Origin: Escherichia coli
Lineage (GTDB): Bacteria; Pseudomonadota; Gammaproteobacteria; Enterobacterales; Enterobacteriaceae
Assembly (NCBI RefSeq): GCF_003334385.1
Contig: NZ_QOWN01000014.1
Length of the DNA: 64,000 nt
Reading direction: 5' to 3' (one strand)
The notes beneath the pieces were generated by a model. The model saw only the letters and a program-made list of their open reading frames with translations, searched no databases and was not told the origin of the DNA. The position numbers were made by a program, and so were the translations under genes. Within the stretch, counting starts at the first letter, position 1. Every line of letters starts with the position of its first letter. This document shows positions 15,718 through 61,917 of this stretch, piece by piece.

Positions 15718-15861
15718 ATCAACACCAACCGGAACCTCCACCACGTGCTCGAATGAGGTGTGTTGACGTCGGGGGAAAACCTCCTGTGTACCAGCGGGAT
15801 AGAGAGAAAGACAAAGACCGGAAAACAAACTAAAGCGCCCTTGTGGCGCTTTAGTTTTGTT
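15718..15861 (+). ncRNA. sraL: Candidate small RNA (SraL/RyjA-like) antisense to the soxR 3' end
   Basis: Good -10 hexamer TACAAT at 15706-15711 about 140 nt upstream of an intrinsic terminator (stem 15832-15839 / 15845-15852, then T-rich tail to 15861); no coding ORF with RBS in the interval; SraL is recalled to lie in the soxR-yjcD intergenic region on the opposite strand. Confidence 0.4.
15832..15861. terminator. Bidirectional intrinsic terminator at soxR 3' end
   Basis: Hairpin AAAGCGCC-cttgt-GGCGCTTT with T-rich run on plus strand and A-rich run upstream (T-run for minus strand); overlaps soxR stop codon. Confidence 0.7.
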
Positions 15862-57895: not shown

Positions 57896-58299
57896 AACAA
57901 TTTCCCTTCATTGAATGAATGGAGATTTACCCAAAAACATTTCGGGCGGGATCGAGTATACACAACTAAAGCATGCGAATTACGGCGCGGGGAATTAGCG
58001 ATGGCGTTTTAGGATAATTGGAATGAATATCAAATATAAGTTTCAACCTATATTTAAATAACAATAAAAATCATAAACTTAAAATAAAAACAAAAGCAAT
58101 TAATCTGCGTATTTTCCGAAATAAACAACGATTAAAAATCTATTTTAGGATTAACCTCACGGTATGATTTCCGTTAAATTACAGACAAGGGGATTTATCT
58201 GATAAAAAAATGCCGACATAACGTCGGCATTGTTATTAAGGTTATTTAATCAATCGTGCTATGTATTAATTGCCGAATACGATGTACATATCGGCATCG

Positions 58300-58383
58300 A
58301 CCTGTAGGCCTGATAAGACGCGACCGCGTCGCATCAGGCATCGGTTGCCGGATGCGGCGTGAACGCCTTATCCGGCCTACATA
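58300..58383. repeat. REP cluster downstream of pgi
   Basis: TGTAGGCCTGATAAGACGCGACCGCGTCGCATCAGGC and GCCGGATGCGGCGTGAACGCCTTATCCGGCCTACA units. Confidence 0.9.
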
Positions 58384-58393
58384 TCGACGATGA

Positions 58394-60043
58394 TTAACCG
58401 CGCCACGCTTTATAGCGGTTAATCAGACCATTGGTCGAGCTATCGTGGCTGCTGATTTCTTTATCATCTTTCAGCTCTGGCAGAATACGGTTCGCCAGCT
58501 GTTTACCCAGTTCCACGCCCCACTGGTCGAAGGTGAAGATGTTCAGGATCACGCCCTGAGTAAAGATTTTGTGCTCATACAGCGCAATCAACGCACCCAG
58601 GCTGAACGGAGTGATTTCACGCAGCAGGATGGAGTTGGTCGGGCGGTTACCTTCGAATACTTTGAACGGCACCACGTAGTCAAGCGTTGCCGGATCTTTA
58701 CCCTGATCACGATATTCCTGCTCAACCACTTCGCGGGATTTACCAAACGCCAGCGCTTCGGTCTGGGCGAAGAAGTTAGACAGCAGTTTCTGGTGATGAT
58801 CAGAGAGCGGGTTATGGGTGATAGCCGGAGCGATGAAATCGCACGGTACCATTTTGGTTCCCTGGTGGATCAGCTGGTAGAACGCGTGCTGACCGTTAGT
58901 GCCTGGTTCACCCCAGATAATCGGGCCAGTCTGGTAATCCACAACGTTACCGTTACGGTCAACATACTTACCGTTGGACTCCATATTGCCCTGCTGGAAG
59001 TACGCCGCGAAACGGTGCATATACTGGTCATACGGCAGAATCGCTTCAGTTTCCGCACCAAAGAAATTGTTGTACCAGATGCCAATCAGCGCCAGCAGTA
59101 CAGGCAGGTTTTTCTCGGCAGGCGTGGTGGAGAAATGCTTGTCCATCGCGTGTGCGCCGGAAAGCAGTTCAACGAAGTTATCAAAGCCGATGGAGAGAAC
59201 AATCGACAGGCCAATCGCTGACCACAAAGAGTAACGGCCGCCAACCCAGTCCCAGAACTCGAACATGTTGGCAGTATCAATACCAAACTCGCCAACGGCT
59301 TTGGCATTGGTGGAAAGCGCCGCAAAGTGTTTTGCAACGTGTTTTTCATCACCTGCCGCTTTCAGGAACCAGTCACGCGCGCTATGGGCGTTGGTCATAG
59401 TTTCCTGAGTGGTGAAGGTTTTAGATGCTACCAGGAACAGCGTGGTTTCCGGGTTTACTTTTTTCAGCACTTCCGCGATGTGAGTCCCATCGACGTTAGA
59501 AACAAAGTGCATGTTCAGGTGGTTTTTGTACGGACGCAGAGCTTCGGTCACCATGTATGGGCCGAGGTCAGAACCGCCGATCCCGATGTTCACTACGTCA
59601 GTGATTGCTTTGCCGGTATAACCTTTCCACTCACCGGAAATAATCGCTTCTGAGAAGGTTTTCATCTTCTCCAGCACCGCGTTGACTTCCGGCATTACGT
59701 CTTTGCCATCAACCAAAATCGGGGTATTGCTACGGTTACGCAGCGCTACGTGCAGCACGGCGCGGTTTTCAGTGCGGTTGATCTTCTCGCCAGAGAACAT
59801 CGACTTAATCGCGCCCGCCAGATCGCACTCTTTCGCCAGATCCTGTAATTTCGCCAGCGTCTCTTCAGTGATGCGGTTTTTGGAGTAATCCACCAGCATC
59901 TGATCGTCGAAGGTTGCGGAGAACTTAGAAAAACGATCGCCGTCTTTAGCAAAAAGATCGGCGATCGTAACGTCTTTCATTTCATCGAAGTGTTTCTGTA
60001 GTGCCTGCCAGGCAGCGGTCTGCGTTGGATTGATGTTTTTCAT
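58394..60043 (-). CDS. pgi: Pgi, glucose-6-phosphate isomerase (549 aa)
   Basis: ATG at 60041-60043 gives 549 aa ([19 protein letters not shown]...). Confidence 0.97.
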
Positions 60044-60261
60044 TAGCAATACTCTTCTGATTTTGAGAATTGTGACTTTGGAAGATTGTAGCGCCAGTCA
60101 CAGAAAAATGTGATGGTTTTAGTGCCGTTAGCGTAATGTTGAGTGTAAACCCTTAGCGCAGTGAAGCATTTATTAGCTGAACTACTGACCGCCAGGAGTG
60201 GATGAAAAATCCGCATGACCCCATCGTTGACAACCGCCCCGCTCACCCTTTATTTATAAAT

Positions 60262-60567
60262 GTACTACCTGCGCTAGCGCAGGCCAGAAGAGGCGCGTTG
60301 CCCAAGTAACGGTGTTGGAGGAGCCAGTCCTGTGATAACACCTGAGGGGGTGCATCGCCGAGGTGATTGAACGGCTGGCCACGTTCATCATCGGCTACAG
60401 GGGCTGAATCCCCTGGGTTGTCACCAGAAGCGTTCGCAGTCGGGCGTTTCGCAAGTGGTGGAGCACTTCTGGGTGAAAATAGTAGCGAAGTATCGCTCTG
60501 CGCCCACCCGTCTTCCGCTCTTCCCTTGTGCCAAGGCTGAAAATGGATCCCCTGACACGAGGTAGTT
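60262..60567 (+). promoter_or_regulatory. Lysine riboswitch (L-box) in the lysC 5' leader
   Basis: Long GC-rich structured leader directly upstream of lysC containing AGAGGCGC ... GGAGGAG ... CCUGAGGGG-type segments; lysC is a well-known riboswitch-controlled gene. Confidence 0.75.
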
Positions 60568-61917
60568 ATGTCTGAAATTGTTGTCTCCAAATTTGGCGGT
60601 ACCAGCGTAGCTGATTTTGACGCCATGAACCGCAGCGCTGATATTGTGCTTTCTGATGCCAACGTGCGTTTAGTTGTCCTCTCGGCTTCTGCTGGTATCA
60701 CTAATCTGCTGGTCGCTTTAGCTGAAGGACTGGAACCTGGCGAGCGATTCGAAAAACTCGACGCTATCCGCAACATCCAGTTTGCCATTCTGGAACGTCT
60801 GCGTTACCCGAACGTTATCCGTGAAGAGATTGAACGTCTGCTGGAGAACATTACTGTTCTGGCAGAAGCGGCGGCGCTGGCAACGTCTCCGGCGCTGACA
60901 GATGAGCTGGTCAGCCACGGCGAGCTGATGTCGACCCTGCTGTTTGTTGAGATCCTGCGCGAACGCGATGTTCAGGCACAGTGGTTTGATGTACGTAAAG
61001 TGATGCGTACCAACGACCGATTTGGTCGTGCAGAGCCAGATATAGCCGCGCTGGCGGAACTGGCCGCGCTGCAGCTGCTCCCACGTCTCAATGAAGGCTT
61101 AGTGATCACCCAGGGATTTATCGGTAGCGAAAATAAAGGTCGTACAACGACGCTTGGCCGTGGAGGCAGCGATTATACGGCAGCCTTGCTGGCGGAGGCT
61201 TTACACGCATCTCGTGTTGATATCTGGACCGACGTCCCGGGCATCTACACCACCGATCCACGCGTAGTTTCCGCAGCAAAACGCATTGATGAAATCGCGT
61301 TTGCCGAAGCGGCAGAGATGGCAACTTTTGGTGCAAAAGTACTGCATCCGGCAACGTTGCTACCCGCAGTACGCAGCGATATCCCGGTCTTTGTCGGCTC
61401 CAGCAAAGACCCACGCGCAGGTGGTACGCTGGTGTGCAATAAAACTGAAAATCCGCCGCTGTTCCGCGCTCTGGCGCTTCGTCGCAATCAGACTCTGCTC
61501 ACTTTGCACAGCCTGAATATGCTGCATTCTCGCGGTTTCCTCGCGGAAGTTTTCGGCATCCTCGCGCGGCATAATATTTCGGTAGACTTAATCACCACGT
61601 CAGAAGTGAGCGTGGCATTAACCCTTGATACCACCGGTTCAACCTCCACTGGCGATACGTTGCTGACGCAATCTCTGCTGATGGAGCTTTCCGCACTGTG
61701 TCGGGTGGAGGTGGAAGAAGGTCTGGCGCTGGTCGCGTTGATTGGCAATGACCTGTCAAAAGCCTGCGGCGTTGGCAAAGAGGTATTCGGCGTACTGGAA
61801 CCGTTCAACATTCGCATGATTTGTTATGGCGCATCCAGCCATAACCTGTGCTTCCTAGTGCCCGGCGAAGATGCCGAGCAGGTGGTGCAAAAACTGCATA
61901 GTAATTTGTTTGAGTAA
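60568..61917 (+). CDS. lysC: LysC, lysine-sensitive aspartokinase III (449 aa)
   Basis: 449 aa MSEIVVSKFGGTSVADFDAMNRSADIVL...; preceded by ~300-nt structured leader (lysine riboswitch). Confidence 0.97.
   Translation: MSEIVVSKFGGTSVADFDAMNRSADIVLSDANVRLVVLSASAGITNLLVALAEGLEPGERFEKLDAIRNIQFAILERLRYPNVIREEIERLLENITVLAEAAALATSPALTDELVSHGELMSTLLFVEILRERDVQAQWFDVRKVMRTNDRFGRAEPDIAALAELAALQLLPRLNEGLVITQGFIGSENKGRTTTLGRGGSDYTAALLAEALHASRVDIWTDVPGIYTTDPRVVSAAKRIDEIAFAEAAEMATFGAKVLHPATLLPAVRSDIPVFVGSSKDPRAGGTLVCNKTENPPLFRALALRRNQTLLTLHSLNMLHSRGFLAEVFGILARHNISVDLITTSEVSVALTLDTTGSTSTGDTLLTQSLLMELSALCRVEVEEGLALVALIGNDLSKACGVGKEVFGVLEPFNIRMICYGASSHNLCFLVPGEDAEQVVQKLHSNLFE

Follow-up and report, generated by a model that had tools for sequence, protein, structure and literature searches.

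The interval 60262-60567 on the plus strand of the window (the whole 64,000-nt stretch of Escherichia coli contig NZ_QOWN01000014.1 analysed here) is almost certainly the 5' untranslated leader of lysC, carrying the wild-type K-12 lysine riboswitch. A cmscan search of the whole window against Rfam 15 places RF00168 (Lysine riboswitch) at 60280-60476 (+) with 99.5 bits (E-value 3.1e-25) against a gathering score of 30, and the match spans model positions 1-182 of 182, i.e., it is not truncated. A first-pass annotation, made from the sequence alone, had proposed an L-box lysine riboswitch upstream of lysC, and the covariance-model scan suggested there as a check returned a significant match rather than none. 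The two sequence blocks quoted in it, AGAGGCGC (60289-60296) and CCTGAGGGG (60341-60349), both fall on conserved core positions of RF00168 in the cmscan alignment, and nothing found contradicts the identification. The element itself is already known, annotated in RefSeq, and experimentally characterised, and is in this respect ordinary; the only lead worth passing on is the presence/absence dimorphism of the leader among related species.

The regulated gene, lysC, encodes the lysine-sensitive aspartokinase III of 449 aa at 60568-61917 (+), according to both NF006570 (767.9 bits, cut-off 455) and the K-12 annotation. Its ATG lies 91 nt beyond the end of the aptamer on the same strand, and the divergent upstream neighbour is pgi (58394-60049, minus strand; NF001211, 909 bits). 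Positions 60044-60620 (577 nt) are 100% identical to E. coli K-12 BW25113, whose RefSeq annotation has a riboswitch at the matching coordinates and, after it, lysC, yjbD, and rluF. The closest known system, the K-12 lysC riboswitch studied in the Lafontaine, Masse, and Wade laboratories, is the same element without any difference, with the same gene context (pgi, lysC, yjbD, rluF) and the same numbering of functional sites.

As for the transcription start, five published positions of the lysC riboswitch match the window only if +1 is the G at 60262 (+): RNase E Site1 at +250-253 (TCTT, 60511-60514), G309 (60570, the G of the lysC AUG), G349 (60610, g), U354-357 (60615-60618, tttt), and A364 (60625, a). 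The start coordinate of the first-pass annotation, 60262, is exactly this published start, and its estimate of about 300 nt agrees with the 306 nt of the interval 60262-60567, which runs from +1 to the base preceding the ATG at 60568. Relative to the published +1, the sequence places the lysC promoter at 60227-60260 (+), with the consensus -35 box TTGACA at 60227-60232 and, at 60250-60260, an AT-rich -10 block TTATTTATAAA, both conserved in orthologous loci with long and short leaders alike. This promoter escaped a simple promoter and terminator scan, which also reported no terminator on the plus strand of the leader; since the scan missed the site, the exact -10 hexamer can only be inferred.

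Several other RNA elements were matched in the window. The Hfq-binding sRNA sraL (RyjA) has a full-length Rfam match of 146 bits at 15718-15858 (+), and its distance of 44.5 kb to the lysC leader fits the K-12 map. An STnc430 match (77.5 bits, 58092-58241, plus strand) and a REP-type naRNA4 match (58307-58377, minus strand) are located just beyond the 3' end of pgi, and further naRNA4/REP matches, all on the minus strand, are reported at 8409-8480, 44418-44488, and 48647-48717.

The leader had also been described as GC-rich and structured. The first holds only mildly, GC content being 0.56 for the leader and 0.60 for the aptamer vs 0.44-0.52 just upstream. The second is supported by the MFE of the leader, −125.6 kcal/mol (z = −2.74 vs dinucleotide shuffles, 1 of 100 shuffles being as stable). 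The whole-leader MFE does not reproduce the aptamer fold and was left aside, the structural model of the aptamer being derived from Rfam. With the model pairs mapped onto the plus strand, P1 is formed by 60285-60290/60466-60471 (extendable by C60284-G60472), P2 by 60295-60303/60350-60358, P2b by 60310-60317/60336-60343, P3 by 60362-60373/60382-60392, P4 by 60393-60403/60410-60419, and P5 by 60421-60427/60455-60461. Each of the six helical segments can thus be placed on the sequence; in E. coli, 47 of the 51 model pairs are canonical, and the P5 loop contains an extra hairpin in comparison with the family consensus. The kissing contact L2-L3, important for the aptamer (PMC3082890), is assigned by complementarity and covariation to GCCAG at 60324-60328 and CUGGC at 60376-60380 (+). 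Immediately 5' of P1, MFE folds contain a hairpin CCUGCG-CUAG-CGCAGG at 60268-60283 (+7 to +22, plus strand). In several genera this region has a different yet also self-complementary sequence; 61% of the cells are paired, a weak column count because the 5' flanks fall into several unalignable types.

Orthologue covariation supports the aptamer (60280-60476). In 46 distinct orthologous aptamers the Rfam-derived structure is paired in 88% of cells, vs at most 46% for slid controls, and compensatory changes affect 26 pairs (206 cells) in helices P2, P2b, and P3, values reached by none of 500 shuffles. The L2-L3 contact is paired in 82% of cells vs at most 40% in slid controls, with G-C replaced by A-U in 15 sequences and A-U by G-C in 1. 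The core blocks AGAGG.GC (after P1), GGGG/CGCCGA (around P2-P3), UGUCA (before P5), and GGAG.(A/G)CU (before the 3' strand of P1) are identical to the consensus in the cmscan alignment and invariant in the 46 orthologues. P1 and P5 are likewise invariant in 46 of 46, which we attribute to the requirement that their strands fit two alternative partners. Judging from these substitution patterns, strong selection, both purifying and compensatory, acts on the aptamer. The same patterns bear on attenuation through a translated leader peptide or small ORF, of the kind seen in classical amino-acid attenuators, for which mechanical ORF calling offers a candidate, a 57-codon ORF starting with TTG at 60367-60540 (+). 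This ORF, however, lacks a preceding SD, carries indels of arbitrary length in orthologues (located in the P5 loop and in the hairpin of the platform), and accumulates substitutions that compensate base pairs rather than follow codons, and the region is fully accounted for by RF00168. The probability of such attenuation is practically negligible.

Downstream of the aptamer, two alternative sets of pairings are predicted. The 5' strand of the anti-P1 (antisequester) helix, 60450-60475 (+189 to +214, plus strand), overlaps the 3' strands of P5 and P1 and is taken from the MFE in the ligand-free context; its C/U-rich 3' strand, assigned by folding to 60505-60530 (+244 to +269, plus strand), carries RNase E Site1 (UCUU, 60511-60514) and the proposed rut. 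Inside this helix, which has been described as "particularly large" (PMC5234074), MFE folds contain a small hairpin at 60480-60500 (+219 to +239, plus strand) that differs in sequence and length among orthologues. The last 7 nt of the anti-P1 3' strand, CCUUGUG (60524-60530, +263-269, plus strand), are, according to complementarity and folding, the 5' half of the SD sequester helix. Its 3' half is CACGAGG (60556-60562, +295-301, plus strand), found in the fold of +255..+312 and containing the SD GAGG at 60559-60562. The lysC AUG follows at 60568-60570 (+), its G being G309, the published pause and site of Rho/NusG-dependent, lysine-enhanced termination (PMC10946432, PMC5234074). This complementarity agrees with the initial proposal that the expression platform extends to the lysC RBS, which is further backed by folding of the sequester helix in 42 orthologues and by the published SD sequestration in the lysine-bound state (PMC10946432).

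According to column counts, the anti-P1 helix is paired in 96% of cells in 41 distinct orthologues vs at most 67% for slid controls, with 1 compensatory pair, and the sequester helix in 97.6% of cells with none. Because the strands hardly vary, these helices can be neither confirmed nor refuted by covariation, and per-sequence folding was used instead. To this end, 42 distinct long Enterobacteriaceae leaders were folded in two contexts, with the aptamer strands either free or withheld. The mean probability of the sequester helix is 0.15 with the strands free vs 0.92 with the strands withheld, and the SD is paired with mean values of 0.67 and 0.97, respectively, while CCUUGU is paired to the 3' strand of P5 with a mean of 0.83 when the strands are free. 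The rut/RNase E tract (20 nt upstream of CCUUGU) shifts in the opposite direction to SD and sequester pairing, its mean pairing being 0.58 free vs 0.29 withheld. Thus, in these models the switch behaviour is reproduced across the 42 orthologous leaders. For the E. coli sequence alone the thermodynamic contrast is weak (sequester probability 0.54 vs 0.66); some folds of its fragments contain a competing local hairpin, and tract-exposure values are mixed, the tract being C-rich and G-poor. In the MFE model the bases of Site1 (+250-255) are not in a duplex but in an internal loop within the anti-P1 helix.

One further pairing arises in the aptamer-constrained MFE. The 5' end of the mRNA, ACUACCU (60264-60270, +3-9), is perfectly complementary to AGGUAGU at 60560-60566 (+299-305), which overlaps the SD. 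By inspection of the alignments, this pairing is not kept in Kluyvera, Pseudocitrobacter, and most other genera, and because of this absence it is regarded as a chance or E. coli-specific complementarity.

Lysine dependence, RNase E cleavage, and Rho termination are taken here from publications on the identical sequence, while the present analysis contributes the identity of the aptamer, the sequence identity with K-12, and the alternative pairings with their conservation. According to these publications, without lysine an anti-P1 stem forms, lysC is translated efficiently, and both rut and the RNase E sites are double-stranded (PMC10946432, PMC5499598, PMC5234074). With lysine, P1 forms, the SD is sequestered, RNase E cuts at the sites then exposed, and Rho loads on a C-rich tract near +240 overlapping the RNase E sites, terminating at the G309 pause and, indirectly, within the lysC ORF (PMC10946432). 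In the proposed mechanism, the five-helix junction P1-P5 (60280-60476) would bind lysine. In the ligand-free state the 3' strands of P5 and P1 (+189-214) would pair with the pyrimidine-rich +244-269, and this anti-P1 helix would bury the RNase E sites and rut and keep CCUUGUG off the SD, allowing both transcription and translation of lysC. Lysine binding would lock P1 and P5 in the aptamer and leave the tract single-stranded, which would permit RNase E cleavage and Rho loading, with Rho-dependent termination at the G309 pause and at further sites in the ORF, and the CCUUGUG-CACGAGG pairing would hide the SD. Repression would then operate at three levels, namely, translation initiation, mRNA decay, and transcription termination. 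The first-pass annotation omitted the control of RNase E cleavage and Rho-dependent termination by the platform, which goes beyond translation.

A purely translational switch, in which only the RBS is hidden and the mRNA is lost passively as an untranslated message, would agree with the SD belonging to the switching helix and with most E. coli riboswitches having first been described in this way (PMC5499598). Such a switch is, however, very improbable here, being contradicted by the lysine-enhanced Rho/NusG termination at G309 observed in vitro in a ribosome-free system and by the higher RNA polymerase occupancy in the ORF upon deletion of Site1 (+250-253) (PMC10946432), as well as by the direct cutting by RNase E of sites accessible only when lysine is bound (Caron 2012, as cited in PMC10946432). 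Lysine control exerted mainly at the promoter, through DNA elements or a transcription factor and with the structured leader secondary, has a still smaller chance of being correct. Indeed, 31 related species retain the promoter and have no aptamer, but repression by lysine is still 2.7- to 8.5-fold in constructs that carry only the riboswitch under lacUV5, and is absent from the riboswitch-less control (PMC10946432), and the selection acting on the aptamer also speaks against this explanation. Promoter-level control is additional and cannot explain repression under a heterologous promoter, and repression by the riboswitch at three levels is the preferred reading.

In comparison with other systems, the lysC L-box of Bacillus subtilis has an aptamer of the same family, with five helices and the L2-L3 and P2-L4 contacts, and as in E. 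coli it is repressed by lysine and located upstream of an aspartokinase gene (PMC3082890). The platforms differ: that of B. subtilis is an intrinsic terminator/antiterminator (PMC3082890), whereas E. coli combines SD sequestration with RNase E and Rho, and the simple scan found no terminator-like site on the strand of the E. coli lysC platform. The E. coli riboswitches of thiC (TPP) and ribB (FMN) are translational and, by means of RNA structure, also exert direct control over Rho-dependent termination, RNA polymerase pausing at the start codon (PMC10946432, PMC5234074). Their ligands and aptamers, however, are different, the pause half-life of lysC is independent of the ligand, and lysC also exposes RNase E sites that overlap rut (PMC10946432, PMC5234074).

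Within E. coli, the leader region is present in all 5426 complete genomes, and its identity is at least 99% in 5421 of them. Spontaneous lysC-constitutive mutants mostly map to the riboswitch helices (Patte 1998, cited via PMC3082890; PMC6254735). The comparison with the reference leader that had been suggested for deregulating point mutations was run and yielded none over the 577 nt; because of the 100% identity with K-12 the leader is wild type, with no deregulating mutation, and a position list of the classical constitutive mutations becomes moot. In three divergent E. coli strains the sole changes in the leader are at unpaired positions of the aptamer (C>T at 60380 and a deleted A at 60309). 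For the window itself the consequences are small, as it contains no variant altering lysine feedback. In practical terms, the lysC riboswitch is of interest because lysine analogues such as aminoethylcysteine (AEC) target it and because deregulating mutations arise in it in lysine overproducers (PMC6254735); to this side nothing new is added here.

Two E. coli strains have mobile elements in the leader. EECO1006, a clinical isolate, carries IS1 between the intact aptamer and the lysC expression platform, after the equivalent of 60474, with 60464-60474 duplicated, which should uncouple lysC from lysine sensing. In WB61, the SD region is interrupted by an ISEcp1 unit of ~1.8 kb that includes a fragment of a DUF4942 gene; the unit lies between the equivalent of 60560 and a second copy of the leader starting from 60448, and is flanked by a 113-bp duplication. 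Downstream of ISEcp1, the lysC gene of WB61 thereby retains just the part of the leader that begins at +187 and lacks the 5' half of the aptamer, and this arrangement is likely constitutive.

Klebsiella and Raoultella (12 loci) have a self-complementary insertion of ~100 nt in the apical loop of the SD sequester, between GGCTGAA and CCCCCTGACACGAGG, and their P5 loop contains a second extra hairpin; the switching strands are unchanged. A different set of ~120-nt insertions, of the form ...GAATCC(C/A)...GAGCTTAC...AAGTAAGTGA...GGTGAG..., occurs in the P5 loop of the aptamer in two loci, where one family leaves the Rfam-type riboswitch fold intact, and just downstream of the -10 block in three short leaders. 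These insertions have no Rfam match and, judging from the ERIC1R/ERIC2 primer sequences, resemble ERIC/IRU repeats. In Escherichia albertii, the sequence 5' of P1 (GCGCGAAAAGCAAAGGTAATAG) is of the Kosakonia/Klebsiella type, not that of E. coli, as is the distance from promoter to SD (389 vs 303). Such a leader points to a possible mosaic history of the intergenic region between pgi and lysC in the genus Escherichia.

A further variation concerns the aptamer as a whole. It was noticed because a fixed-length MAFFT alignment of upstream regions proved meaningless, with identities of 47-50% between close relatives. Among 80 Enterobacteriaceae lysC loci (a sample without Salmonella), the aptamer is found in 47; two loci are cut too near lysC to be scored, and 31 of the 78 informative ones have none (~40% of the sampled species). 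The aptamer-less group comprises Escherichia sp. E1V33, Escherichia whittamii, and all sampled species of the Citrobacter freundii and amalonaticus groups, as well as the Enterobacter cloacae complex, Lelliottia, Trabulsiella, Pluralibacter, and Superficieibacter. In the short-leader loci (L009, L010, L012, L014, L016-L024, L026, L039, L041, L049, L050, L053, L054, L056, L069-L071, L074, L075, L080, L081, L084, and L086; upstream of lysC, at about locus positions 1090-1200) blastn did not match the aptamer, and in 33 such loci no Rfam family, RF00168 included, reaches its gathering score.

The short leader of ~80 nt corresponds by homology to the final ~75 nt of its E. coli counterpart, including the pyrimidine tract, CCUUGUG, the hairpin, and CACGAGG. 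Thus, the aptamer-less relatives have in common with E. coli the promoter blocks, the pyrimidine tract, the CCUUGUG...CACGAGG hairpin, the SD, and lysC, whereas the segment from about +14 to +236, i.e., the whole aptamer and the anti-P1 5' strand, is missing. RNAalifold and per-sequence folds predict the SD-sequestering hairpin by default in these leaders, the mean pairing of the SD being 0.90. Two copies of a 6-nt direct repeat, CTGCGC, delimit the missing block in E. coli, one at +8-13 (60269-60274) and the other at +237-242 (60498-60503), and a deletion between the two copies would leave a leader of 80 nt, compared with the 81 nt observed in Citrobacter amalonaticus. On a neighbour-joining lysC tree, the aptamer must have switched between presence and absence at least 9 times. 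Short leaders have common features that are absent from every long leader, e.g., GGTCGCT after CCATGG, which may point to one origin with subsequent exchange. In E. coli, the long form is universal among the 5426 complete genomes.

One possible, though rather doubtful, reading is that a riboswitch cassette has long been polymorphic for presence or absence, the E. coli leader being one of the alleles; a hairpin core would be OFF by default and the aptamer would act as a removable, lysine-sensitive anti-repressor that has been repeatedly lost or exchanged by recombination. The literature search returned no report of loss of the lysC riboswitch (in Salmonella or Citrobacter) or of such a dimorphism, key older papers being outside its reach. 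If it is undescribed, the dimorphism would offer a natural experiment on the loss and gain of a riboswitch and on its replacement.
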